A DNA stretch of 64,000 nucleotides from Bacteroidaceae bacterium (GTDB taxonomy: Bacteria > Bacteroidota > Bacteroidia > Bacteroidales > Bacteroidaceae): assembly GCA_024398475.1 (NCBI GenBank), contig JAKSJB010000005.1:2182-66181 (forward strand). The letters run 5' to 3'. The notes under the pieces were generated by a model, which did not search any database, had not been told where the DNA came from, and was given only the letters and a program-made list of their open reading frames with translations. Numbering within the stretch: position 1 is the stretch's first letter; each line of letters starts with the position of its first letter. This document shows, piece after piece, positions 36,081 to 50,132 of the stretch. A program made the position numbers and the translations under genes.

Positions 36081-36158
36081 TTTGCGTTTGCGTAGGCGTA
36101 GCCTTTTGCGTTTGCGTTATCGTTTGCGTAGGCGTAGCCTTTTGCGTTTGCGTTTAAC
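36081..36158. repeat. GCGTTTGCGT word array (reverse orientation of the AACGCAAACGC family)
   Basis: GCGTAGGCGTAGCCTTTTGCGTTTGCGTT occurs twice, 35 nt apart. It is the reverse complement of blocks at 52893-52990, 54665-54728, 55614-55756 and 58881-59024. Confidence 0.85.
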
Positions 36159-36336: not shown

Positions 36337-36730
36337 ATTTATATTTCTATGTACTTACTGGAATCAGCACGCATTTCCCCTCATTAGCCTACCATATTGC
36401 ATTTCCATCCCAAAGTGTCCATTTTCGCCCCACCCCATCATCGTGACATCAATTTTACACACAGCTGATACACAGTGTTTTATATCAAAGAAACACCCAT
36501 ATCCGTTATACTCACCTCATAAGTCCGTAACAGGCCAGTTATAAGTCAGTACTTAGTCAGTAATGAAAGCCAAATTACGCTGGAAGTAAAATTACACATA
36601 AAACGTGCGTAATGTTTTCCTCTCATATGCAATATTTGAGGTTGATTATTGGGATATGACTACTTGTACTATTTACCTACATTTTTACTTTGCTTTTTAT
36701 TTACTTTTCCTACGCTGTTCCTTTGCTCAT

Positions 36731-36894
36731 CCTCCGCTGATCCTCCGCTGCTCCTATGCTCTTCCTCCACACCAAACTCGAACCAAACTCGATGCAAATT
36801 CGAACTGGCTCTGCTATTTTATCGACTTTGGTTCGAGTTTGGTTCGAATTTGCTTCGAGTTTGCAACGGACTTATTGCGGAGGTACAGCGGAGG
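36731..36894. repeat. long imperfect palindrome of CCTCCGCTG and CAAACTCGAAC words
   Basis: The left arm is 36731-36805 and the right arm is 36831-36894. By hand, about 27 of 34 positions match in the inner arms. Confidence 0.7.
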
Positions 36895-37066
36895 TAAAGC
36901 AGAGGTAAAGCAGAGCATTTTATTACCTATTTTACTATTTTGTACCACATGGCACAATGGCACAACTGGCGCAAACAACGTTCTGTTGCATAAACCTCCA
37001 AACAAGAAAATGAAACAAATTTGAATTTTTTTGTGCAAAATATGTTTTGATTAAAATAATTTTACT

Positions 37067-37074
37067 TATCTTTG
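37067..37074 (+). promoter_or_regulatory. orphan -7 box TATCTTTG
   Basis: This is an exact TAnnTTTG with no ORF for about 480 nt downstream. It is followed by the CCTCCG-GGAGAAAT-CGGAGG hairpin. Confidence 0.4.
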
Positions 37075-37519
37075 CAACATCCTCCGGGAGAAATCGGAGG
37101 TGGAAGGCGTATTTGCTTTCTCCTTATGACGAATCTGGAAAATTCTTATATATAAGGTCGAGATAGTAATAAGCCTATGTTGGTGTACAAATACAGTATC
37201 TTGCCCACGCATGTCTGTTTTTATACATTCAGCGTGGGTATATTTATTTGTTTCATTCCTTATAGGTTTTTCCAGAGCCCGTCATAGATGAACGAATATG
37301 TTCCCGCGCTTTCTTATGGTTAAACCTTTAACACTCGTCAGGGAACGATGAGTACATATTATTAACCGGCAACAAAACTTACAATACCTAACCTATCACA
37401 AACAATTAACTGCAATTCTAATTGTTCGCATCCCGTATCACAATACGTTATGCACACATTCACCCCATTATTTGTAAATATTTTGTATAATTGATTCCCT
37501 TCCGGAAACATTTGAATGC

Positions 37520-37527
37520 TATCTTTG
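37520..37527 (+). promoter_or_regulatory. -7 box TATCTTTG for the first small-protein gene
   Basis: This is an exact TAnnTTTG, 28 nt upstream of ATG 37555. Confidence 0.5.
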
Positions 37528-37554
37528 CAGTAATCAATCAAAAAATACATTACT

Positions 37555-37776
37555 ATGGCAAGATTCATTATCACAACGAAACGCACGAAAAACAGCAACG
37601 GCATCCGCATAGAGCCAGGCATGTCCGTTGAAGTGGTCACCCAAAGTATAAACAACCCAGTCACCACCAATGGCGGTCAACCAGTAATCGATGCCTTCAT
37701 GCGCATCTACGGCATCGACATCAAGAAAGCCGGATGCTTAAACATGAATGAATTGGATGTTGAAAGAATCAGTTAA
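37555..37776 (+). CDS. conserved small protein, paralog 1 (73 aa)
   Basis: It is 59/72 aa identical to the product of 38380-38598, with many synonymous codon differences. It has its own -7 box. Confidence 0.75.
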   Translation: MARFIITTKRTKNSNGIRIEPGMSVEVVTQSINNPVTTNGGQPVIDAFMRIYGIDIKKAGCLNMNELDVERIS

Positions 37777-37787
37777 ACAATTGAAAT

Positions 37788-37964
37788 ATGCTTCGAGGTA
37801 CAACAACATTTAAGTGCGAAAAGTGCGGCCACAAATTCGTCGGTCCAGATTTCGAATGGAGGGCAACTTCACGAACTGCACCATTAACATGCCCGGAATG
37901 TGGCGGAACAGCATACGCGGTTCACGAAAGTTGGTTGAGAAAGATATCCAAACTATTGAATTAG
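37788..37964 (+). CDS. 58-aa zinc-ribbon-like protein (missed by ORF track)
   Basis: Hand translation gives MLRGTTTFKCEKCGHKFVGPDFEWRATSRTAPLTCPECGGTAYAVHESWLRKISKLLN. It has two CxxC pairs about 24 residues apart and starts 11 nt after the upstream stop. Confidence 0.55.
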   Translation: MLRGTTTFKCEKCGHKFVGPDFEWRATSRTAPLTCPECGGTAYAVHESWLRKISKLLN

Positions 37965-38073
37965 CCGTAACAACAAATCCAACCACTTTACAAACTAATT
38001 TGGTGGATTATTGGAAATTTAATGAGGGCAATGACATTCTTGACCAATAAATGTGAAGTAAAATAGTTCTACT

Positions 38074-38325
38074 ATGGCAACATTCTACTGCGAATACTGC
38101 GGACACAAGTTCGCTGACGTAAGGCAACTTGTAAACAGTACATGCTCAAACCATCCAGATGGTCCCAACAGAGGCAAGCACAAGCTCTACGAAGGAAGGG
38201 AGAAATCAAGTTACCTATGCCGTTTCTGCGGCCGTACTTTCCCCACAATCATGCAGATGGTCTATGCACCTTGCTCATGCCATCCCAAAGGATGCAACAA
38301 AGGACATCATTCACCAGCATTGTAA
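38074..38325 (+). CDS. 83-aa Cys/His-rich protein with internal tandem duplication
   Basis: It contains two ~35-aa repeats of CxxCGxxF(x9)CSxHPxGxNxGxH. Confidence 0.65.
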   Translation: MATFYCEYCGHKFADVRQLVNSTCSNHPDGPNRGKHKLYEGREKSSYLCRFCGRTFPTIMQMVYAPCSCHPKGCNKGHHSPAL

Positions 38326-38332
38326 ATAATTG

Positions 38333-38359
38333 ATGAGCCATTTAAGTGGCCTCATTTGT
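38333..38359 (+). terminator. weak hairpin at the G+C boundary
   Basis: ATGAGCCA (38333-38340) pairs with TGGCCTCAT (38347-38355) in an 8-bp stem with one bulge and a 6-nt loop. It is followed by TTGT only. Confidence 0.3.
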
Positions 38360-38379
38360 AAAACCAAATAATTCTATAT

Positions 38380-38598
38380 ATGGCAAGATTTAAAATTACG
38401 ACAAAACATGTGAAGAACTGCAATGGTATTCGCATTGAGCCAGGAATGTCTGTGGAAGTAATTACGCAGTCTATGAGTAATCCTGTAACCACAAATGGTG
38501 GACAAATCGTTGTTGATGCTTTTTATCGTATCTACGGTATTGACATCAAGAAAGCAGGATGTTTAAGCATGAATGAATTAGATGTAGAACAAATGTAG
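38380..38598 (+). CDS. conserved small protein, paralog 2 (72 aa), first gene of the AT-rich operon
   Basis: It is a paralog of 37555-37776. Its stop lies 10 nt before the next start. Confidence 0.75.
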   Translation: MARFKITTKHVKNCNGIRIEPGMSVEVITQSMSNPVTTNGGQIVVDAFYRIYGIDIKKAGCLSMNELDVEQM

Positions 38599-38608
38599 GC
38601 TTTTACTT

Positions 38609-39100
38609 ATGCAAGATCAAATAAAAAAACAAATTAGAGGATTCATCGATCATTATATAAACGTAGAAGGATTGCCTTACCCTCAAAATGGGAGTTTAGA
38701 GAGGTTTAACTTATGGCATTTTGCTCATGTTTTTGAGGAAAAAATGGAAGTTCGATTAAATGACAGTCAACTGCAGAGGTGTAAGACTGTGGAGAATTTG
38801 GTACAAATGTGTTATTCTGTAGTAATTCTTTCTTCAAAAACTAGTATTGGTAGTTTGACGAAAGAATCATCAAAAAAGGAAAAAACAAAAGAGCAAGACC
38901 GCAGTTCTAATTCAAAGGAAAAAAAATCAACTATCGACAATGAACAAAGCCCTATTACAGATTCAGAAGACGATAAATGTGATATAGATTCCACACTCAA
39001 TGTTTTAAGGGCAAAAGCAAATGAAACAAAATCAGATATTTACGCAAGAATATTTAATAACACTAAAACAAAACGTAATGGACATTTTAAAAGATTTTAA
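38609..39100 (+). CDS. 163-aa protein: possible carrier-protein-like N-domain plus Lys/Ser/Glu-rich tail
   Basis: The N-terminal ~70 aa are patterned like an ACP/PCP (GSLERFNLWHFAHVFEEKMEVRLNDSQLQRCKTVENLVQMC versus DSLDTVELVMALEEEF..I......TV...I.Y). The rest is low complexity. It overlaps the next gene. Confidence 0.5.
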   Translation: MQDQIKKQIRGFIDHYINVEGLPYPQNGSLERFNLWHFAHVFEEKMEVRLNDSQLQRCKTVENLVQMCYSVVILSSKTSIGSLTKESSKKEKTKEQDRSSNSKEKKSTIDNEQSPITDSEDDKCDIDSTLNVLRAKANETKSDIYARIFNNTKTKRNGHFKRF

Positions 39101-40790
39101 TCAGCGCATTCAAAAAGCTGACGAATTGGTAACGTCTGTCTTACCAACCGGAGAAGTTTTGAACGACCTTTCCTTGAAAAAGGATGAAGCCTCAAAGACT
39201 TTAGAGAGAAACAAAGAAGTAAAAATCCCTTTTATAGGTGATTTCTCTGCAGGAAAGAGTTCACTTCTTAATGCATTCATGGGAGTAGATTTACTGCCGA
39301 CAAATCTTACACCAGAAACAGCTGTCTCATACCAGTTGTACTATGACACAAGAGAGCATCTCGTCATCGTACGTGGTGATGGTTCCACTGAAGAGGCTCC
39401 TGTTGATGCTATCAAATCGTTGAAACTTACCCCCAACGATATGGTGAATGTGTACGTAAACAATGACAAAATTCGAGAGCTCAATGCTCGAGGAATCGTC
39501 CTTGTTGATATGCCTGGAATTGATTCTGGCATCGAAGCACATAACAATGCCATCACCAAGTATTTGCAGGAAGGAACGATCTTCGTTATCGTCGCTGATG
39601 CCGAACAAGGTACACTTAGAAACAGTGCAATATCTTTCATTCGTGAAATTAAGCAATATAGTCTTTCCGCTGCAGTCTTAATCAACAAGGCCGACAAGAA
39701 GTCGCAGTCTGATATGCAGCAAAACATCCTGCCACACATCACAGATCAAGCAAAACGCTATATTGGCGAAGGAACCTTTGTAGGTGTAACATCTGCTTCA
39801 ACCAAAGAAACAGGAGCCGTTTCTATCATTCTGAATGATGTTGATGTAGAGTCTGCGATTAAGCAACGTTGCTCTGGTGCTGTTAATGGATACATCAACG
39901 ATGATATTACTGCTGTACAGACTAGAATTACCATAATCAACACCGGCAAAGACGAGTATGCAGAGAAGTTGGAACAACTTAAGAATGGTCGTGACAAAGC
40001 ATTGCGAAAACTGAAGGAACTCGATGAAAACGCACAACCTGTTGCTGACTCCGCACAGGATATTCTTGATGATGTCAGCAATGCTTTGAATGCACGCTCT
40101 TCTTCTCTGGCCAATCTCCTTTTCAGTAGCAACAATAACATGAATATGTTTAATGCCGAACTCCTGAATATCATTCGTCCGGTTATGCTGAACGCTTTCA
40201 AACGTGAGTTGACAGAGTATAGCACTGTTATAGGAGGGGCTGTCCAGGGCTTTGCAGTAGATGTTAATGACATATTGGCTGACAAGAACAACAAACCGTT
40301 GGATTACGCAAAAGAAATGGCGGGCAACATGTTTGGAGGCAAGGCTCTTGAAAACATGCTCAATGCTGGTATGAAAAAGTTAATGGAGCGCTGGGCTGAG
40401 AAGAAAGGACTTGTCACCCTTTTGGGCTGTCTCTCCAAAGTTATTGGTCCGGTAGCAACAATCATAGTCAACCTCATTCCAGACATTCTCTCCTTTATCT
40501 TTGGAAAGAGCCGTGAAGAAAAAGTGGAAGAAATACGCGCAAAACTCTCATCGGGCGTATTTGACCGTATTGTCGAAGGTTTACGTCCACAAGTAGTACA
40601 GATGCTTGCCGAGCAACGTACAAATGCTATGTCTGAAGCAGAAAAACTTGTAAACGAAGAAATTAAAAATTTCGATGCAGCCATCGAACAAGCCCAAAAT
40701 GAGCAGGAAAAGAATGCTCAGGAACGTGAGGTTGAAACAGGCAAACTTGTTCAAACTGTTCAAGAATTGCAAGCACTTCTAATAGCATAA
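39021..40790 (+). CDS. dynamin-like GTPase 1 (589 aa)
   Basis: G1 is GDFSAGKSSLLNA (39237-39260 plus following codons), G3 is DMPG and G4 is NKAD. A long helical region follows, and a hydrophobic segment LVTLLGCLSKVIGPVATIIVNLIPDILSFIFG lies near the C-terminus. An alternative start at ATG 39078 is possible. Confidence 0.85.
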   Translation: MKQNQIFTQEYLITLKQNVMDILKDFNQRIQKADELVTSVLPTGEVLNDLSLKKDEASKTLERNKEVKIPFIGDFSAGKSSLLNAFMGVDLLPTNLTPETAVSYQLYYDTREHLVIVRGDGSTEEAPVDAIKSLKLTPNDMVNVYVNNDKIRELNARGIVLVDMPGIDSGIEAHNNAITKYLQEGTIFVIVADAEQGTLRNSAISFIREIKQYSLSAAVLINKADKKSQSDMQQNILPHITDQAKRYIGEGTFVGVTSASTKETGAVSIILNDVDVESAIKQRCSGAVNGYINDDITAVQTRITIINTGKDEYAEKLEQLKNGRDKALRKLKELDENAQPVADSAQDILDDVSNALNARSSSLANLLFSSNNNMNMFNAELLNIIRPVMLNAFKRELTEYSTVIGGAVQGFAVDVNDILADKNNKPLDYAKEMAGNMFGGKALENMLNAGMKKLMERWAEKKGLVTLLGCLSKVIGPVATIIVNLIPDILSFIFGKSREEKVEEIRAKLSSGVFDRIVEGLRPQVVQMLAEQRTNAMSEAEKLVNEEIKNFDAAIEQAQNEQEKNAQEREVETGKLVQTVQELQALLIA

Positions 40791-40808: not shown

Positions 40809-42491
40809 ATGAAACTGGATAACTTAAAGCAACAGTATAAAAATACAGGTCGCAAAAGTACTTCCGATATATTGAAAGTTGATAGATATGAGAATCCACA
40901 AGAGGCGTTGAATCTTGTGGCTCATATCTGTACAGCTGCGGCTGATATTGACCTTAGTGGTTGCACAGAATCTTTCTACAACATGCTCGGCAAAATACAA
41001 GATCTCTTTGAAGAAAAGAATTTTACGTTTGCAAACAAAGATTTCTTTGAAGACTGTGAGAATGTTGTTGCCGACATGGAAGATAGTGACGCGCGAATGA
41101 CTTTAACTATAGGCGTTGCTGGTGGATATAGTTCGGGAAAATCTTCATTTCTGAATGCACTTACAAATCTGGGGGACTTGTTACCAACAGGCATTGATCC
41201 CGTGTCTATTGTTAATACAGAAATTAACTGTAACCCTGATGCCACGCAAATCTCTGTCAGAGGGTGTAACATTAAGAATGATATCGTTTTACTTGACAAA
41301 GAAATTTTGGGCTGTATAAAACATTCTTCTAAGACAAAGGTGTTCTTGACTTCTGTTTTGAACAAGCTTACTCTTGATATTCCAGCTCCTGATTATCTTT
41401 GTAATGTTTGCTTTATAGATACTCCTGGGTACAATAATTCTAGTGCGGCAAATAAAGAAAATGGTGTGACAGATAAAGATACTGCACTTGAAGCAGTCAA
41501 ACGTGCTGATGCCGTCTTATGGTGTATAGATAGCGAAATAAGCACCATTACTGATACAGATTTTCAAATGCTTAAGACTTTAGATGTACCATATATTATC
41601 ATCTTTACAAAAAGTGACAAGAAGAGCAAAGATGAAATTTTGCACATTATGAGAGAAGCAGAGAAGGTCTGCAAGAAAAATATTGCCAGTAATTTACCTT
41701 ATGCCATAGTTGCCGCAACTTGTGCTTCCGGTAAAATAGAGTCAACGACGTTGGATGGTAAAGATTTATCACAGATATTAAGGCAATTAAAGAAAAAATG
41801 TGGCACTCATGATCTTCTTCAGTATTGCTGCAATAGAATAGAAGATTTGTTTACAGCGGAAATTCTTGTTTCAGAAGTAAAAATCAATGCCAATGAACGA
41901 CTTCGACAGAAATTGATTGAAAAGAAGAAAAGAGTCAATGGAGAAGAATTGGAAGAATTGGAAGACGAAACGGATCAAGTCAGAAGCACCATTAAAACAG
42001 AAAAAGACTTTTGTCATTTACTAAATGAGAAAAAAACTTTGATTCTACAGGAGGTCAAAGTTGCATGTACCGAGAGTTTGAAGGTGGTTAAACGTGTACT
42101 TGGTACACTTCAGCATCTAGACCATACCGAAGATAAAGATATATTTTCTGCTATTAGTGCTGATAACATGGGACGTTTTCTTGCTTGTTTCAGTACAGGA
42201 GTCGATATGACTTCGCTAAATAGAGACAAATATACTCCGATGACAGCAGCTGTTGCAAGTGGGAACAACGAAATGGTAAAGTTCTTAATCGAACACAATG
42301 TAGGAATTGACATACTTCGCGAAAAAGACGGAAGAGGATATAATGCTTTTGAAACAGCAGTGATGAATCATTATAAAGATATTTGTTCTCTACTTCTAAA
42401 TGCAGACCCGCAACTTCCTCGTTTTAGCCGTCCTGTTGTTGAATTGTCTCGTATGAATAACTTTGAACAATGGATAAAACAATATTCTTAA
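40809..42491 (+). CDS. dynamin-like GTPase 2 fused to C-terminal ankyrin repeats (560 aa)
   Basis: G1 is GGYSSGKSSFLNA (41112-41144), G3 is DTPG and G4 is TKSD. The C-terminus has ANK-like repeats (TPMTAAVASGNNEMVKFLIEHNVGID; GYNAFETAVMNHYKDICSLLLNADP) at about 42225-42420. Confidence 0.85.
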   Translation: MKLDNLKQQYKNTGRKSTSDILKVDRYENPQEALNLVAHICTAAADIDLSGCTESFYNMLGKIQDLFEEKNFTFANKDFFEDCENVVADMEDSDARMTLTIGVAGGYSSGKSSFLNALTNLGDLLPTGIDPVSIVNTEINCNPDATQISVRGCNIKNDIVLLDKEILGCIKHSSKTKVFLTSVLNKLTLDIPAPDYLCNVCFIDTPGYNNSSAANKENGVTDKDTALEAVKRADAVLWCIDSEISTITDTDFQMLKTLDVPYIIIFTKSDKKSKDEILHIMREAEKVCKKNIASNLPYAIVAATCASGKIESTTLDGKDLSQILRQLKKKCGTHDLLQYCCNRIEDLFTAEILVSEVKINANERLRQKLIEKKKRVNGEELEELEDETDQVRSTIKTEKDFCHLLNEKKTLILQEVKVACTESLKVVKRVLGTLQHLDHTEDKDIFSAISADNMGRFLACFSTGVDMTSLNRDKYTPMTAAVASGNNEMVKFLIEHNVGIDILREKDGRGYNAFETAVMNHYKDICSLLLNADPQLPRFSRPVVELSRMNNFEQWIKQYS

Positions 42492-42492
42492 C

Positions 42493-44691
42493 ATGAAGAT
42501 AACTAAAAAAAACTACAAAACTGCCTTCGAAAAATTATCATCGTTAATTGAAGGTATTCCGACTTCTGATAACTCAGAAATAAACGACGCCAAAAAGCGC
42601 ATCTCCGATGAATTGAGTAATCAGCGTAGCGGATGTGAAGAACTATTGCGTACCAATGACATACTTCGTATAGGTGTTGTTGGTCAGGTTAAAGCAGGCA
42701 AATCCTCCTTCTTGAATTCATTGATATTTGGAGGCGAAAATGTTCTTCCTCGGGCATCAACCCCTATGACGGCAGGTTTAACCATATTACAGTACGGGGA
42801 GGAAAACTCTTTTGATGTTGAGTATTACAATTCCTTGGAATGGCAATCATTCAAAGACAAGGATATTGAATACGCAAAGCATATAGCTGACGCACGTGCT
42901 GAGAATCCGGAGGCGACTGAAGATGAGTTGGCTAAAGAAATTGATAATGCTCTTCTTGCAGCGCATGAGCTGGTGTCTAAATGCAGCCGAAAGGCTGAAA
43001 GTTGTGTGCAGAAAGAATCGAAACATGACATACATCCTTTTAAAAGCATCTCAGAACTTCAAGATGTGTTGGAAACATATGTCGGTGCTGAAGGTGTTTA
43101 TACACCTATTGTTAAAAGTCTGACTATAAATATCCACGACGAAAGACTTAATGGTGTTCAAGTGATAGACACTCCAGGAGTAAATGACCCTGTAGTTTCG
43201 CGTGAACAGAGAACACGTGAATGTCTTCGTGGATGCCATGGTGTTTTCCTACTCAGCTATTCTGGACGTTTCTTTGATCAGGTGGATGTCTCGTTTCTTG
43301 TAAACCGCATTGGCGAGCAGGGCATTGGTACTATTGTAGTAATTGCAAGCAAATTTGATTCTGTTCTCCAGGATGTTGGTAACAAATTCCATGATGACTT
43401 ATATGGAGCTATATTAGATTGCCAACGCAGTCTTCGTGGTCAAATGGAACGCAATTTGGCTTCTTCTGAGTTTAGAGGTAGCAATCCAGAACTCGATTTC
43501 AGTTCAGGTATCGGTTTCTCTATATCGCATAAGGAAGAAAATCGACTTGACGATACGGAACGCAATGTTGTTGAACAGATGAGAAGATTCTTTCCAACTT
43601 TCTTTAGTAATAGCGCAGATTGTAAAGAAAATTTCAACATGTTGTCTTCTATTGATGACATTCGTGAAAATTATTTACAGAAGACTTTTATTGACAATAA
43701 AGAGAAAATCATTGCTAAAAAACTGCAAGATTACTTTGTCGGTTCAACAGCTAACATTAGAAAGATTGTTGAATCTAGACGTGAACGTTTGCAGCAGATG
43801 TTATCAGCGCTCAACGAAAATGATATTAAAGACTTAAAAAATCAACGTAAGCAATATCTTGACATCGTGGTCAATATAAGCAGTGACATAGAAAGTGTTG
43901 TTAAGCGTGCAGAACAACGTGCAGAGCAATCCGTAAAGAAAGCCCTTAATGGTTATTCTTTCAATGTGAGCAGAGTACCGACTACCTCAAAAACAGCATA
44001 TTGTAATCGAATATCAACATTATGGCGAAACAATAAGAGTTTTAGTGTAGATTACGAAGTCGTTGATATAAACAAACTCGCAACCAATCTTGAAGATGGA
44101 TTTAAGAGAGAACTAGAAAGGATAAATTCACTTTGGGAGAAAGAAAGTTCAGAAATTATTCAGCTTATTAAAGATACTATAGGAGATCTTATTGCAGAAA
44201 GGGAATCTGTTGACAAAGAAGGTAAACTGAATGTGCGTTTGTTGCGCAATATACTAAATGAAACCATTGATTCCATGCAAAATGGAACGACTCTGGACTT
44301 CTTTGAAGCCCAAGATAAATTTAATGAGGCTGTCACTTCTTGTCTTCAGGGACAAGATACCGTTAAAACATCATTCGGTCGCATGGAAGAGAATGCTGCC
44401 AAAAACGAAGTTCTTAAATCTGCGACAAATATAAAAGAACAGGTACAAAAATCCGTTTATTCTCTGCTAGATTCTATGCATACCGAAGTGCAGAAAGTTG
44501 TAAAGAAAGGAAGAGAAGATTGTTTGGCTGTCCTAACTGATAATAAAGAGATGTTTATTAGCACGATTAAAGACAGTATAACATCTTATTTAGATGAGCT
44601 TGAAGTTAGTCTCCAAAATAAGGAGATGAATATTTCGACTCTAAATGAAGCTATCAAACATCTAAAAGAATTGGAGAACGTCTTAAAATGA
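42493..44691 (+). CDS. dynamin-like GTPase 3 (732 aa)
   Basis: G1 is GQVKAGKSSFLNS (42682-42705 plus following codons), G3 is DTPG and G4 is SKFD. It has a helical C-terminal region of over 400 aa. Its start is 1 nt after the upstream stop. Confidence 0.85.
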   Translation: MKITKKNYKTAFEKLSSLIEGIPTSDNSEINDAKKRISDELSNQRSGCEELLRTNDILRIGVVGQVKAGKSSFLNSLIFGGENVLPRASTPMTAGLTILQYGEENSFDVEYYNSLEWQSFKDKDIEYAKHIADARAENPEATEDELAKEIDNALLAAHELVSKCSRKAESCVQKESKHDIHPFKSISELQDVLETYVGAEGVYTPIVKSLTINIHDERLNGVQVIDTPGVNDPVVSREQRTRECLRGCHGVFLLSYSGRFFDQVDVSFLVNRIGEQGIGTIVVIASKFDSVLQDVGNKFHDDLYGAILDCQRSLRGQMERNLASSEFRGSNPELDFSSGIGFSISHKEENRLDDTERNVVEQMRRFFPTFFSNSADCKENFNMLSSIDDIRENYLQKTFIDNKEKIIAKKLQDYFVGSTANIRKIVESRRERLQQMLSALNENDIKDLKNQRKQYLDIVVNISSDIESVVKRAEQRAEQSVKKALNGYSFNVSRVPTTSKTAYCNRISTLWRNNKSFSVDYEVVDINKLATNLEDGFKRELERINSLWEKESSEIIQLIKDTIGDLIAERESVDKEGKLNVRLLRNILNETIDSMQNGTTLDFFEAQDKFNEAVTSCLQGQDTVKTSFGRMEENAAKNEVLKSATNIKEQVQKSVYSLLDSMHTEVQKVVKKGREDCLAVLTDNKEMFISTIKDSITSYLDELEVSLQNKEMNISTLNEAIKHLKELENVLK

Positions 44692-45368
44692 AAAATGTAG
44701 TTGAAACAGCAAACAGTCTTTTGATTGAAAAAAGAGACGCTCTAGTTGATGAAGTTAAAGATAAGTTTTCATCAATAATAATTCCTTCGGAGAGCGAAAT
44801 AGATCAGGAAACCATGCATCCATGCATTTCTTCCCCTAAGACTGCATATTGGTCTATAGGAGGCGGTGTTGCACTACTTGCATTAGGTGCAAATATTGAC
44901 CATGGGAAGGTTTTGTCAATCGGGGTTGGAGTAGGAGCTATCATATTTGGTGCATTTAAGTTGTTTCATACAAGAGCCGATCAGAATGAGATTAACCAAA
45001 ATATCAAGCAAGTTGATATTAATCTTATAATGAGAAAAATAAATGACAACTATAATGAATTATATAGTTCTATTATGAACGAATGGGATGATGGCTTAAA
45101 TACAATCAAAGAGCAGGTTGTGTCATTGATAAACAATCTCTCACTTGACTCATCTATGCGTTCAAAAGCAATGAATGTTATTCGTTCTCGCTCCATAATC
45201 GAAGTTTCCACTCTTGATTTGCTTAACGACTTAAATCAAGCTGGTAGAGGAACTGGGTTGAATGCTTTACAGAATCAAGTGTCAATTGCAGAAAATGTAT
45301 TCATCCAAGCAATTAATACTGCTTGCCAAAAGCAGATGGACACGTATAATAGTTTGATGTCGATATAA
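44688..45368 (+). CDS. two-TM hairpin membrane protein (226 aa)
   Basis: It makes an ATGA start/stop overlap with the preceding GTPase gene. Two hydrophobic segments (YWSIGGGVALLALGANI and VLSIGVGVGAIIFGAFKLF) are separated by a short loop and flanked by helical regions. Confidence 0.7.
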   Translation: MKNVVETANSLLIEKRDALVDEVKDKFSSIIIPSESEIDQETMHPCISSPKTAYWSIGGGVALLALGANIDHGKVLSIGVGVGAIIFGAFKLFHTRADQNEINQNIKQVDINLIMRKINDNYNELYSSIMNEWDDGLNTIKEQVVSLINNLSLDSSMRSKAMNVIRSRSIIEVSTLDLLNDLNQAGRGTGLNALQNQVSIAENVFIQAINTACQKQMDTYNSLMSI

Positions 45369-45373
45369 ATTCT

Positions 45374-45820
45374 GTGCAAACCAAAATACAGCCTATGCAA
45401 CTATTAATTCCTTTTACAGAATCTACGGACTTGATCAAGACTAAGAGCGGGCAGAATATAAACCTGAGTACAGTTGACGGGAAAACGGTAAAGGTGGGGT
45501 ATCGGATTCAGAAACGGATTCCTATACTTGGTGATATTTCCAAGGAGTTTTCGCTAAATCTCACATACAAGGGATTGGTCAACGAGGTTCTGAAACTTTC
45601 ATATTCAGCTGATGCCGTTGGTATTGATTTAATCATCAAGGGATTGCTGGCTATTGTTTCGTCTCTTGTGGAACAGAAGGTGGTGGAGATTGGTGAGAAC
45701 AATCTATTGTTGGTTCATCTGGACAAAATTGAAAACGTACACAAGGCATTGCAGCAGATTGATGTGGAAGATATACGATTCCAAGAAGGTATGGCTGTAG
45801 CTGACTTTCATATAAAATGA
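45374..45820 (+). CDS. hypothetical protein (148 aa from GTG 45374, 141 aa from ATG 45395), last gene of the AT-rich operon
   Basis: It starts 5 nt after the upstream stop, and its composition matches the operon. No motif was recognised. Confidence 0.6.
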   Translation: MQTKIQPMQLLIPFTESTDLIKTKSGQNINLSTVDGKTVKVGYRIQKRIPILGDISKEFSLNLTYKGLVNEVLKLSYSADAVGIDLIIKGLLAIVSSLVEQKVVEIGENNLLLVHLDKIENVHKALQQIDVEDIRFQEGMAVADFHIK

Positions 45821-45868: not shown

Positions 45869-46274
45869 ATGCAGAAGACAACGCTTGAATTTTCACATAA
45901 TGCCCGTACAACTTATACGGCGGTAAAGAATCTGTTCAGGAAGCACACTAAGTTCAGTAGTGTGAAGACGAATGACGAGTTGTTTATTGTTGAAGCGCGT
46001 CATGGAGCATGGATCTCTCCATTCAGAAGAATCAGTAAAGATGAAGGTGGCGGCTACAAGTTCCACGACCTGCAAGGTTGTTGTGGAGTCCTCTTCACGT
46101 TCATGGCTCAACCTTTTGAATTTCGGTGCCAACAAGAGTAACATCTCCGACCTTAGCGACTAAATCAGCAATGAGGTATATAAGTTGATGCAACCTGGGG
46201 AGATTCCCATGAGCAATCAGGGAAACGACCATTCCACAATAAGGATTGTGCCACCTGAAATCAGATATAAATAA
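45869..46274 (+). pseudogene. possible decayed gene (frameshift near 46025 and in-frame TAA at 46161)
   Basis: ORF 45869-46141 and ORF 45972-46163 join sensibly at ...EARHGAWISPF / (S)EESVKMKVAATSSTTCKVVVESSSRSWLNLLNFGANK... The second frame stays open for 36 more codons after its TAA. Confidence 0.35.
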
Positions 46275-47142: not shown

Positions 47143-48618
47143 ATGGAAAAAAAATCTTCTGTTTCAACAATAAGAGAGGTTGTGATGGCTACATCAGACA
47201 AAAGTCTCTCTGCCGAAATAACAGCAATGCAGAAAGAAGGTACAATTCGTAAGATTGCGCCAAAGGTTTATACTACCAACATGGATGATGAAGCTGAAGC
47301 AATAATACGCAGAAATATATACTTCATACTGGGTCAGCTATATCCTCAGGCTGTCATAAGTCACCGTTCTGCATTTGAGTTGAAACCAACTGAAGAAGGT
47401 GACATATTCCTTACCTATACATATACGAAAAACATCAATCTTCCAGGGGTGAAAGTACACCTTCAGGAAGGACCGAAAGGAACAGACAGGGATATGCCTT
47501 TCATTGAGAATCTGTTTATTTCAAGTACGGAAAGACGAATGCTTGAAAACCTTCAGCCTGCAAGAACAAGAGGGGGCGTTTCAAAATGCTTACCTCGGAC
47601 ATTTGTGGAAGATCAACTTGAACGGATACTTCAAGTGAATGGTGAAAGAGGTATCAACAAGTTCCGTGACAATGCTCGCAGCATGGCTGATGCATTGGGT
47701 ATGCAAAAGGAATTTGACATTCTGAATTCTATCATCAGTGCTCTGCTAACAACAAAACCAAGCAACATCCTTTCTTCCAAGTTAGCAGTTGCCAGGGCAA
47801 TGGGCAGTCCGTATGATGTAGAGCGTTACAGATTATTCGGCACTTTATTTGATGCCTTGCACAATCAATCCTTTGCTGATATTGATGAACCAAATCAGAC
47901 TACAACTGAGTTTCGTAATTTTGCTTTCTTTGAGAGCTACTTTTCCAATTATATTGAAGGAACCGAGTTTGAGATAGAGGATGCTTGGCACATTATTGAG
48001 ACAGGAAAACCGATGCCGGCACGCAATGCTGATTCTCATGATGTATTGGGTACTTTCCAGATTGTTGCAAGCCGAAGAGAAATGCAGAGAATACCATCTT
48101 CCTGTGACGAACTTATTGACATTTTACAGGAACGTCATCGTCTAATGATGTCTGCACGACCAGAGAAAGATCCCGGTATGTTCAAGATGCTGAACAATCA
48201 TGCCGGTGACTCACATTTTGTTGATTGCACCCTTGTTCGTGGAACTCTGAAAAAAGGCTACGAATACTATCAGGCTCTGGAACATCCTTTTGCCCGTGCC
48301 TTATTCATGCTTTTTATGATAAGCGAGGTGCATCCATTCAATGACGGCAATGGTCGTATATCAAGAATAATGATGAATGCAGAAATGGTTCATGCAGACC
48401 AAGCAAAGATAATCATTCCTACAGTATTCCGTGAAGACTATCTTAATGCTCTCCGTCGCCTGACAAGAAAGGGCGATTCTACAGTATTGCTTCGTGCTAT
48501 GTCCAGAGCACGGCTTTTCAGTTCAAAGATTAGCGGTGATGACTTTGAAACAACAAAAATATTCCTTGAAAGCTGCAATGCATTCAAGGATAATGAAGGC
48601 TATATTTTGAAGTTTTAA
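47143..48618 (+). CDS. Fic-domain protein (class II, self-inhibited) with wHTH-like N-terminal region
   Basis: The Fic motif HPFNDGNGRISR lies at 48331-48366. The inhibitory-helix motif SNYIEG, matching (S/T)xxxE(G/N), lies at 47944-47961. The N-terminus (EGTIRKIAPKVYT) is reminiscent of the AbiEi-type wHTH. Confidence 0.9.
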   Translation: MEKKSSVSTIREVVMATSDKSLSAEITAMQKEGTIRKIAPKVYTTNMDDEAEAIIRRNIYFILGQLYPQAVISHRSAFELKPTEEGDIFLTYTYTKNINLPGVKVHLQEGPKGTDRDMPFIENLFISSTERRMLENLQPARTRGGVSKCLPRTFVEDQLERILQVNGERGINKFRDNARSMADALGMQKEFDILNSIISALLTTKPSNILSSKLAVARAMGSPYDVERYRLFGTLFDALHNQSFADIDEPNQTTTEFRNFAFFESYFSNYIEGTEFEIEDAWHIIETGKPMPARNADSHDVLGTFQIVASRREMQRIPSSCDELIDILQERHRLMMSARPEKDPGMFKMLNNHAGDSHFVDCTLVRGTLKKGYEYYQALEHPFARALFMLFMISEVHPFNDGNGRISRIMMNAEMVHADQAKIIIPTVFREDYLNALRRLTRKGDSTVLLRAMSRARLFSSKISGDDFETTKIFLESCNAFKDNEGYILKF

Positions 48619-48737: not shown

Positions 48738-50132
48738 CTATTCTATCTGCCCTACCCTTTCGATTCCGTACTTCTTCAGGGAGCTTTTGGTGGTATCGAT
48801 ATACAGAAGCAATTCATCGAATGCCAGATATGTCTTATTGTCCATCTGCATGATGCCGACATTGTCGCCGAACTTCAGTTTTTGGATTCCTTCATTGATG
48901 TCGCGCGGCACCTTATAGTATTCTCCTTCGTTTTCGGAAAGGATATAGAGGTGTGTCTGGGTGATGGCATATAATCCGGGACGGAGTTCATATTCATAGT
49001 TTTCAAACGGTTTGACGGTCTTCATGGTTCGGAACCAGTTGTCATAACATTCCGATACGGAGGATTCGGTTATGCGGGTGAGGTTCATCTGCATGTTCCA
49101 GGACTTTGACGGCAGCACTCGCTTGAACGGCATAGTTTCGAGATTCAGGACCGAAGGCATATCCGTTATATACCAGCAATGGTCTGAGTCGGCATAATCA
49201 AGTCCCTTTATTCTATGCATGATTGCTTTCGGGTGTACTATATAGGCTATAAGTCTTCCGTCGGCTGATTCCAACATGAACAAGGTGTAGCGGATTCCTG
49301 TCAGGTTGTTGTCGGAGTCCTTATGCCAATGTGTGGCGAAATAACAGCCGCCATCCAATGTATTCTCGATTTTCCAGAAATCAGAGAATTTAAGTTTTCC
49401 ATCGCATTCATTCCAATACCCCTCTATGTCAAAATCAATCAGGTTCTGCTTCATTTCGGTAGAGGTGGAATAGATGTTGCCTGAATCAAAAAAGGCTTCG
49501 TAGGTATCAAGGATGTTTGTTACGTGATACAGCAGCATCAGTCGGGATTTGTGTTGCTCGTTGCGTGCCTTGGTGATGACTGGCAATTCAGAAAAGATTG
49601 TTTCGCCATCTGTAAACTTCTCCAACAAGGAAAGTACAGTCATGAAATCCTGTGAAATGTTTTCGACATCACCACCCTTTGAATCATATCCAGGAATGAT
49701 CTTAAGCAAAAGCAGCAAAAGGAACGGGATACTTATGCCTTGCTGTATTGCCATTTCATATATTTCACATTTCTTTCGTGCAACACTTTCTATACGTTGA
49801 GGCAGATAAATATACCGCAACAGTTCCAATGCCACATCTGCAGGATTACTTCTTCGGGCAAGATTACTGCGGTAGAATTCCCAGGCAGTCCTATATTGCT
49901 GAAGCAGGATGTCAAGACCGATGTAGTCATCTGTCATCAACGAGACTTCAACCTTGAGGTCATGGTATGCAGCACGCATTTTCTGAGGGGATTTCAGACA
50001 TCGCTTTATTCCATTGGAATGAATGGAATGATTGTCCATTACCGATTCCATTTCTTCCATGGAATTGTATATGAGGCGGGTGTTGACAATCGTTGTCAGC
50101 CATTCCTCGAATTTTCTTGAATCTTCCTGCAT
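48738..50132 (-). CDS. hypothetical protein (464 aa)
   Basis: This is a long ORF with ordinary composition, convergent with fic. No motif was recognised. Confidence 0.65.
   Translation of the reverse strand: MQEDSRKFEEWLTTIVNTRLIYNSMEEMESVMDNHSIHSNGIKRCLKSPQKMRAAYHDLKVEVSLMTDDYIGLDILLQQYRTAWEFYRSNLARRSNPADVALELLRYIYLPQRIESVARKKCEIYEMAIQQGISIPFLLLLLLKIIPGYDSKGGDVENISQDFMTVLSLLEKFTDGETIFSELPVITKARNEQHKSRLMLLYHVTNILDTYEAFFDSGNIYSTSTEMKQNLIDFDIEGYWNECDGKLKFSDFWKIENTLDGGCYFATHWHKDSDNNLTGIRYTLFMLESADGRLIAYIVHPKAIMHRIKGLDYADSDHCWYITDMPSVLNLETMPFKRVLPSKSWNMQMNLTRITESSVSECYDNWFRTMKTVKPFENYEYELRPGLYAITQTHLYILSENEGEYYKVPRDINEGIQKLKFGDNVGIMQMDNKTYLAFDELLLYIDTTKSSLKKYGIERVGQIE

Follow-up and report, generated by a model that had tools for sequence, protein, structure and literature searches.

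What does a small, strongly conserved gene do at the head of an operon whose other genes are diverse and mostly AT-rich? We address this question at a locus in a 64,000-nt stretch of DNA from a Bacteroidaceae bacterium (assembly GCA_024398475.1, contig JAKSJB010000005.1, positions 2,182 to 66,181 of the forward strand), hereafter the window. Two paralogous genes of the DUF6140 family lie there on the + strand, copy 1 at 37555-37776 (73 amino acids) and copy 2 at 38380-38598 (72 amino acids). Together with related loci, they define a recurrent arrangement that in its full form consists of a promoter box, a structured RNA of ~240-290 nt, a terminator-like hairpin with a trailing U-run, the DUF6140 gene and, ~10-30 nt on, a variable cargo. 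The window carries one such head (promoter box P1, leader RNA, promoter box P2 and copy 1) leading an array of two cassettes, in which copy 1 is followed by two small Cys-rich open reading frames (ORFs) and copy 2 by an operon with three dynamin-like genes.

Both small genes are selected members of the DUF6140 family

The two ORFs match the Pfam family DUF6140 (PF19637) over its full length (positions 1-69 of 69; gathering score, 27 bits), copy 1 at E 1.2e-34 and 118.5 bits and copy 2 at E 1.7e-33 and 114.9 bits, and are ordinary members of it. This is the Bacteroidota-specific family that a preliminary description of the window, made from the sequence alone, had tentatively suggested. The same description had counted 59 identical residues among 72 aligned between the copies, with synonymous changes in 8 of 13 codons of the block NGIRIEPGMSVEV and in 5 of 13 codons of the block RIYGIDIKKAGCL; all of these counts were reproduced exactly. 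At the DNA level the copies are identical at 159/216 positions (74%), and 32 codons differ by synonymous changes only, against 13 with a non-synonymous change. By the Nei-Gojobori method, 37 synonymous differences over 45 synonymous sites give a pS of 0.82, which is past the Jukes-Cantor limit, so that dS is saturated and undefined for this pair, and 20 non-synonymous differences over 171 sites give a pN of 0.117 and a dN of 0.127 (pN/pS 0.14). Among 79 full-length copies from different loci, pS is at least 0.7 in 72% of pairs, and the median dN/dS is 0.19 (225 unsaturated pairs), nowhere near 1. Both copies retain all 29 columns that are invariant across 38 diverse family members. Within the window, tblastn aligns them at E ~5e-38, far above chance similarity, and detects no third copy in the 64,000 nt. 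Both small ORFs are real coding genes under strong purifying selection, as had been proposed. Because synonymous sites are saturated, an explanation by a DNA-level repeat or recombination site was ruled out: the copy pair is conserved as protein only and shows no sign of a conserved recombination site. Nor does the locus resemble an integron-like cassette array, as no integrase domain was found in the island ORFs scanned.

The copies differ in composition in the way that the preliminary description had reported. Third codon positions are C33 G10 A20 T9 in copy 1 (C/G in 43/72) and T27 A22 G13 C10 in copy 2 (A/T in 49/72). The G+C content of third positions (GC3) is 0.58 in copy 1, close to the flanking core genes tilS, MFS and pepP (0.59-0.66), and 0.33 in copy 2, close to the dynamin operon (0.30-0.39). 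Across the family, mean GC3 is 0.57 for DUF6140, 0.62 for upstream flanking genes and 0.37 for the first cargo gene, and the GC3 of DUF6140 correlates weakly with that of its own cargo (rho 0.22, p 0.06). Copy 1 is therefore compositionally typical and copy 2 is the odd one. The earlier suggestion of one resident and one horizontally acquired copy is thus too simple: copy 1-like GC3 is the rule family-wide, and both copies sit inside a single island, between ~36.1 and 50.5 kb, in which G+C falls from 0.53-0.55 to 0.36-0.42.

DUF6140 is a stand-alone protein of ~72 amino acids restricted to Bacteroidales. It forms 2865 clusters at 90% identity, the best 120 of which are 75-99% identical to copy 1, and an exhaustive profile search of 1.84 billion representatives returned 341 clusters at 50% identity. 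All members are small stand-alone proteins, longer entries being upstream-extended gene calls. A scan of one genome per species gave 128 relatives, from which we took 80 loci (L001-L080), chosen through DUF6140. Nearly all are labelled Bacteroidales (Prevotella, Alloprevotella, Muribaculaceae, Paludibacteraceae, Bacteroides and others), the exceptions being three labelled 'bacterium' only and one metagenome-assembled genome labelled 'Staphylococcus', which is probably mis-binned. The gene can be multi-copy, with nine assemblies contributing two of the 80 loci each. A structure prediction, proposed in the preliminary description, yielded a confident AlphaFold2 model (mean predicted local distance difference test score, pLDDT, 85.7) of a small sheet-plus-helix fold, with strands at residues 2-8, 12-14, 17-19, 24-29 and 67-71 and a helix at 38-52. 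The NCBIfam, PADLOC and PHROGs collections hold no match to DUF6140, and Pfam gives the DUF alone. A phage origin was rejected, as no relative was found in IMG/VR viral contigs and no PHROG matched. We found no paper naming DUF6140 or PF19637, and a literature search combining Bacteroides, dynamin and non-coding RNA returned nothing relevant.

DUF6140 leads operons with many kinds of cargo

Across the loci, we examined what follows 83 DUF6140 copies, with ORFs called by a simple custom caller whose calls are crude. A same-strand ORF starts within 60 nt downstream in 66/83 copies and within 150 nt in 74/83, and the median gap to the next gene is ~12 nt. Clustering of the first downstream proteins gave at least 26 unrelated groups. 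Proteins of ~370-780 amino acids without a Pfam match account for 18 of them, dynamin-like proteins for 15 and membrane proteins of 120-180 amino acids with weak DUF697 similarity for 14; the remainder include EcsC, DUF1232 and P-loop proteins. The Pfam tally of these proteins counts Dynamin_N (14), EcsC (4) and DUF1232 (3); the PADLOC tally over the 83 proteins gives LeoA (13), LeoBC (12), PDC-S48 (9), PDC-S29 and PDC-S30 (4 each) and one PtuA/AriA-like protein. Further along, the cargo includes small GTPases and an AAA ATPase whose nearest model is the anti-phage IteA (below cutoff). DUF6140 is thus an operon leader for many kinds of mostly AT-rich, defence-like cargo, and the diversity of the first genes shows that it is not specific to dynamin or zinc-ribbon genes. 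A dynamin-like gene directly follows DUF6140 in about 15-17 of the 80 loci (17 by tblastn), and a gene like the zinc-ribbon gene zn1 behind copy 1 lies within 6 kb in 7 of them (tblastn).

Tandem DUF6140-headed cassettes occur in the window and at L007, L043, L058 and L076, the last of which repeats the order DUF6140, zinc ribbon, DUF6140. Upstream neighbours vary between loci in the ORF maps inspected. DUF6140 itself is 67-88% identical across loci, against 25-40% for the dynamin cargo, a contrast that suggests a conserved partner for DUF6140.

A structured leader RNA often precedes the head gene

Reading of the DNA upstream of DUF6140 genes brought to light a leader RNA that had been overlooked in the first reading of the window, where it spans 37086-37323 on the + strand and ends in a terminator-like element (GUUCCCGCGCUUUCUU; covariance model 112.6 bits, E 1e-27). 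Iterated nhmmer searches from window positions 37076-37321 converged on 43 matches, and the covariance model gives 44 matches in 42 of 81 sources, one in the window and 43 in 41 of the 80 DUF6140 loci, with E-values that are rough. These matches lie upstream of DUF6140 and on its strand, with the exception of a divergently oriented element at L001; the RNA was also found at L109, L201, L202 and L216-L218. It accompanies 42/83 DUF6140 copies, in every major cargo class. Rfam 15 holds no match to 37086-37323 at E <= 1, and we found no prior description of this RNA. Over ten loci, Rfam 15 gave nothing at E <= 0.1 apart from the unrelated FopS small RNA (RF04319, 80 bits), which lies at L053 (5943-6012, - strand) ~5 kb downstream of the DUF6140 cassette.

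The window leader folds with a minimum free energy of -82.4 kcal/mol, against -55.0 +/- 4.5 for shuffled sequences (z = -6.09). A 6-bp long-range helix, CUGGAA/UUCCAG in the window, is 95.5% paired across the elements and recurs as CUCGCA/UGCGAG, UUCGAA/UUCGAA and CGCCAA/UUGGCG elsewhere. Compensatory changes occur in 6/6 of its pairs (70 cells), and partners slid by 1-3 columns are 24-50% paired; their score is favoured by an alignment fitted to the six pairs themselves. Because of this bias, and because a MAFFT/RNAalifold consensus recovered just 6 bp, we assessed this and the other helices without an alignment, by comparing RNAduplex energies of each element's 5' segment with its own 3' segment and with those of other elements (31-33 dereplicated elements). 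The core helix reaches -12.7 kcal/mol for cognate and -6.3 for non-cognate partners. Its extension X:X', present in every element as 7-10 bp of differing sequence, reaches -9.8 against -3.3 kcal/mol, with the cognate partner ranking best in 25/33. The pairing B:D, which joins GGCGUGGGG to CCCACGCC just before the U-run, gives -17.9 against -12.4 kcal/mol; the local hairpin C:D, -10.6 against -7.8; A:B, -13.3 against -9.5; and GCAACG:CGUUGC, -8.0 against -5.9. For every helix, the observed value was reached by 0/5000 shuffles, with control region pairs at p = 0.39-0.99; the permutation ignores the relatedness of the elements, so these p-values overstate independence, but the range of different X:X' sequences is telling in its own right. 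An earlier assignment of CUGGAAA/UUUCCAG as a pseudoknot was dropped, since with the X:X' extension it forms a nested long-range helix.

Segments A, B, C and D overlap, which makes A:B, B:D and C:D alternative pairings, a layout that suggests an attenuator switch. At two loci, two leader elements stand in tandem before one DUF6140 gene (L061, 5269-5511 and 5628-5926; L068, 5222-5482 and 5689-5951).

Promoter boxes around the leader and DUF6140

TAnnTTTG is the Bacteroidetes -7 promoter motif. Two boxes of this pattern, both TATCTTTG, flank the leader of the window on the + strand: P1 at 37067-37074, just upstream of the RNA, and P2 at 37520-37527, 27 nt before the ATG of copy 1. Both are pattern matches to a short motif, with 61 matches in the window against 47 expected. 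The preliminary description had placed such a box before copy 1, a zinc-ribbon ORF behind it and an operon 10 nt after copy 2, and each was found where it had been described. At other loci, a promoter box lies within ~70 nt of the leader 5' end in 35/38 elements.

The distance from the T-run of the leader to the ATG of DUF6140 is bimodal, at 32-87 nt or ~180-300 nt. Since none of the 27 short-spacer loci has a promoter box between the T-run and the ATG, DUF6140 and its cargo would there be transcribed only through the terminator-like end of the leader. In 11/13 long-spacer loci, the window included, the ATG is preceded at 35-78 nt by a second box, so that in the window P2 does intervene between leader and copy 1. 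This second box is preceded by a palindrome, CGTAT-N5-ATACG, found at 37434-37447 in the window (~70 nt upstream of P2); its columns are conserved in an alignment of this spacer class from 14 loci, and it is a candidate operator. After the leader T-run, a scan for terminator-like structures also found a second hairpin at 37333-37353 (+ strand; ACTCGTC-AGGGAAC-GATGAGT) with a GGGA-containing loop, whose equivalents elsewhere, identified by eye, have GGGAG, GGGAA or UGAGAA loops. Altogether, the leader has what a cis-regulatory element would be expected to have, namely its own promoter box, a covarying structure, a terminator-like end and, in short-spacer loci, no intervening promoter.

Copy 2 has neither a promoter box nor a leader of its own, a feature that had also been overlooked: no TAnnTTTG occurs on the + strand between 37527 and 38380. 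A weak terminator-like hairpin (38337-38350, + strand), a 5-bp stem followed by CTCATTTGTA, separates it from the preceding ORF, zn2, in a region where scan matches are no more numerous than in shuffles. The same layout holds in the tandem arrays of the window, L007, L043 and L058, each with a leader at the first copy and none at the second. Copy 2 and the dynamin operon are thus probably read from the copy 1 promoters.

A sigma factor can take the place of DUF6140

Metagenomes were scanned with the pattern GGCGTGGG-N(30-60)-TTCCAGRRCC, which proved too loose: of the 80 loci returned, one (L109) holds a true leader element and the other 79 are chance matches. At L109 the leader is followed by an extracytoplasmic function (ECF)-type sigma factor, a C39-like peptidase, a dynamin-like GTPase and an Hsp70-like gene, and contigs near-identical to L109 retain the leader. 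Other members of this sigma family have no leader and head variable cargo of dynamin with Hsp70, TIR, E2/JAB/ThiF or AAA ATPase genes, a repertoire that overlaps with the cargo of DUF6140. This shows that a transcription factor can fill the slot usually held by DUF6140.

Three contigs (L210, L211 and L212; 6001-12597) share the same integrase, portal-like gene and sigma head, and then carry three different cargo sets: AAA ATPases; septin/IIGP/dynamin-like GTPases; and proteins without an assigned identity. Variable cassettes thus occur behind a sigma head in parallel to those behind DUF6140.

Genes and repeats of the island

The left part of the island carries two repeat features, an 18-nt-period tandem repeat (CGTTTGCGTAGGCGTAGCC...) at 36085-36154, directly after the pepP stop codon, and an imperfect palindrome of ~200 nt with internal 11-nt repeats at 36714-36918, at the left edge, which gives spurious matches to microRNA models. 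The first cassette comprises zn1 (37788-37964, + strand), a zinc-ribbon protein of 58 amino acids with two CxxC pairs, encoded 11 nt downstream of copy 1 and matching Zn_ribbon_8 at E 2e-7 but short of the gathering score, and zn2 (38074-38325, + strand), a Cys/His-rich ORF of 83 amino acids taken from the ORF list. The latter is an internal duplication of the motif YxCxxCG...C..HP.G.N.G.H; its zinc-finger matches are sub-threshold only, the 80 loci contain no homologue, and gene calling on the near-identical contig L201 passed it over, so that we treat it as putatively coding.

The second cassette begins 10 nt after the copy 2 stop with an ORF for a 163-amino-acid protein (38609-39100, + strand) that matches no family and has one homologue, at the same position in L024. 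Three Dynamin_N GTPases follow on the + strand: the first at 39021-40790 (E 5e-22; PADLOC LeoA 6e-14, partial), for which the gene call on near-identical contigs starts at ~39078; the second at 40809-42491 (E 5.7e-11), with C-terminal ankyrin repeats (Ank_2 E 1.1e-10); and the third at 42493-44691 (E 4.4e-23). Two further + strand ORFs at 44688-45820, one for 226 amino acids with hydrophobic segments and one for 148, match no family. Behind them lies a frameshifted 'tail' gene for ~134 amino acids (45869-46163, + strand; MQxxTLEFxHxARTxYTA...), split over two frames in the window, with intact homologues downstream of DUF6140 cassettes in 11 loci.

A 194-amino-acid ORF separates the tail gene from a gene for a SoFic-like Fic-domain protein (47143-48618, + strand; Fic E 2.7e-10, PADLOC SoFic 2e-14 and PDC-S04 2e-16), which adds another defence-like gene to this low-G+C island. 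The island is closed by a convergent gene for a conserved 464-amino-acid protein (48738-50132, - strand), which blastp finds in 17/80 loci and which often adjoins the tail gene. This protein has no match in Pfam, NCBIfam, PHROG or PADLOC; its AlphaFold2 model is of good confidence (pLDDT 85), yet no PDB fold is related at E <= 0.001, and the only resemblance is a weak one to a lipocalin-like barrel. It is not recognisable as a recombinase, and the scan of island ORFs revealed none.

Contigs near-identical to the window vary in gene content. On L202 (~730-1120) and L205 (157-534), a DUF1232 gene is inserted precisely after the P2 box and ahead of the start codon of copy 1 (window 37540-37552), a clean single-gene indel of ~395 nt without obvious flanking repeats in contigs that are otherwise ~99% identical. 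L204 (1120-2090) has lost most of the three-dynamin operon; ORFs of 237 and 102 amino acids remain there between intact flanking genes.

What the conserved head may do

We favour, at evenly balanced confidence, a reading in which leader and DUF6140 form a portable regulatory head, with the protein acting on RNA or on the transcription or translation machinery. The leader would be a cis-acting attenuator with a conditional terminator, and transcription of DUF6140 and its cargo would depend on read-through of the leader 3' end. DUF6140 would be a small regulatory factor acting on a conserved partner, either the leader RNA or the transcription/translation machinery, and not on the variable cargo, so that each cassette would bring its own copy of a generic controller. 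A conserved partner is suggested because DUF6140 is near-invariant next to divergent cargo, because its codon usage is host-like and because a sigma factor occupies the same position at L109.

Several observations weigh against this reading. Pfam, NCBIfam and a sequence profile run against the PDB give no nucleic-acid-binding signature for DUF6140, the profile finding nothing better than E ~1 among PDB sequences. The predicted fold has no relative at E <= 0.001 either, the best Foldseek matches being at E 0.53 in the PDB (template modelling score 0.40) and E 0.12 in BFVD. About half of the DUF6140 copies are without a full leader. Conversely, the RNA occurs without an adjacent DUF6140 at L001 (an inverted element with no DUF6140 gene), at L079 (where an ORF for a 168-amino-acid membrane protein lies between leader and DUF6140) and at L109, so that the coupling is not obligatory. 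The 80 loci were selected through DUF6140, so their linkage does not gauge the association from the side of the RNA, and the sole leader that was not selected in this way, that of L109, heads a sigma factor instead. On L202 and L205 the DUF1232 gene lies upstream of copy 1, so DUF6140 is not always the first gene. Finally, the overlapping pairings of the leader suggest a switch without proving one.

A more ambitious form of the regulatory reading would make leader and DUF6140 a ribonucleoprotein switch that senses infection or stress and licenses the effector cassette downstream. It would amount to a Bacteroidales-wide portable 'ignition module' of immune genes, similar in logic to a retron but lacking a reverse transcriptase, and through tandem DUF6140 copies a single switch could drive several cassettes. 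On the present sequences we hold this to be distinctly doubtful. The same retron-like logic could also be placed on the effector side, where DUF6140, perhaps in a ribonucleoprotein with the leader, would be a common sensor, antitoxin or licensing subunit, and conserved RNA and protein would restrain variable effectors until infection. The gene order (conserved RNA, conserved small protein, variable effector genes) is consistent with this, as are short gaps that suggest co-translation of DUF6140 with its cargo, the enrichment of that cargo in defence or defence-candidate families, and the SoFic-like gene of the island. We nevertheless consider it unlikely. One near-invariant protein would hardly contact the products of at least 26 unrelated first genes, the RNA is missing from half of the copies, much of the cargo has no toxin-like signature, no reverse transcriptase or nuclease is consistently present, and DUF6140 has host-like codon usage where its cargo does not. 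The preliminary description had proposed a narrower partnership, in which the small protein would be an adaptor, regulator or trigger mimic dedicated to dynamin and zinc-ribbon modules, one copy perhaps acting as an antagonist or immunity factor of the other module. Recurrence with these modules held up, both in the adjacency to dynamin-like genes and in the seven loci with a zn1-like gene nearby, as did the repeated order at L076. Dedication did not, as most copies head other cargo and zn2 is absent from the 80 loci; the copies, 82% identical and sharing every invariant residue, give no sign of divergent specificity, and nothing was found that speaks either way on antagonism between them. We regard a dedicated partnership as very improbable.

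Two alternatives remain. DUF6140 might mark an insertion hotspot: it would serve the cell in some capacity unrelated to the cargo, such as that of a small stress protein, and foreign cassettes would insert just downstream of this well-expressed gene. Several observations are hard to fit to such a site: the gene is multi-copy per genome and in tandem inside one island, its upstream neighbours vary, its saturated synonymous sites leave no conserved DNA site within it, and the island ORFs scanned include no recognised recombinase. On the other hand, its GC3 is closer to that of the upstream flanks than to that of the cargo, near-identical strains differ in cargo (the DUF1232 indel and the dynamin trio deletion), and a recurrent tail, the 134-amino-acid gene with the convergent 464-amino-acid gene, bounds many loci; we judge a hotspot to be quite unlikely. 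Lastly, the ORF could serve only translational coupling or ribosome loading of the cargo, its peptide being irrelevant. Bacteroidetes generally do without Shine-Dalgarno-based initiation, which together with the short gap to the next gene would be in keeping with coupling, but strong purifying selection on the amino acids, with its 29 invariant columns, and a confidently predicted fold leave this explanation with next to no likelihood.

Relation to known systems

PyrR, HutP and TRAP are first-gene RNA-binding attenuation proteins that act with leader terminators. The DUF6140 head resembles these in that the operon encodes its own small putative regulator, behind a structured leader with a terminator-like hairpin and a U-run. 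It differs in the absence of sequence or fold similarity and in a far larger leader, of ~250 nt with long-range helices, and RNA binding by DUF6140 is hypothetical. A closer parallel by taxon is provided by UpxY and UpxZ of Bacteroides capsule operons, regulators that are encoded by the first genes of paralogous operons and act on elongation via the transcribed leader (PMC11685472). Both cases involve conserved first genes, putatively regulatory for DUF6140, that head many operons. DUF6140, however, is near-invariant between loci and not locus-specific, its cargo is defence-like and not devoted to capsule synthesis, and an effect on elongation is only hypothesised. In Pfam and NCBIfam searches, DUF6140 has no NGN or KOW match of the kind expected for NusG-like antiterminators (UpxY, LoaP, RfaH), and it has no fold match.

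On the side of the cargo, a dynamin-like anti-phage system of two genes, with a relationship to the E. coli Leo operon, has been described (Millman et al., bioRxiv 10.1101/2022.05.11.491447). The copy 2 cargo is similar in having consecutive Dynamin_N GTPases with intact P-loops in a defence-island-like setting, and different in that its GTPases number three, of which one carries ankyrin repeats, and are accompanied by four additional small genes. PADLOC LeoA/LeoBC matches cover part of the models for two of the proteins (E 6e-14 to 1e-8) and are absent for the third, and this cargo falls far short of the cutoff of the NCBIfam LeoA model. The two-gene system goes under the name 'Eleos', which is not found in the text of the preprint; for the dynamin-like system, the preprint describes neither DUF6140 nor a leader RNA. 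Retrons share with these loci a modular logic of conserved RNA, conserved protein and diverse effectors, in architecture only: there is no reverse transcriptase here, and the RNA is co-oriented, upstream and 5' leader-like, with a promoter and a terminator.

Implications for Bacteroidales

Gut and rumen Bacteroidales carry thousands of copies of DUF6140, on which we found nothing published, and the family now gains a testable role as the conserved head of interchangeable defence-like cassettes. Its leader RNA is large and structured, shows covariation of unusual clarity and has no counterpart in Rfam. The majority of cargo families at these loci are without annotation, and anything that follows DUF6140 or the leader RNA becomes a candidate new defence gene, for which the head can serve as a search handle. 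If the head does control expression, this would explain how AT-rich, horizontally acquired immune operons are silenced or switched on in Bacteroidales.

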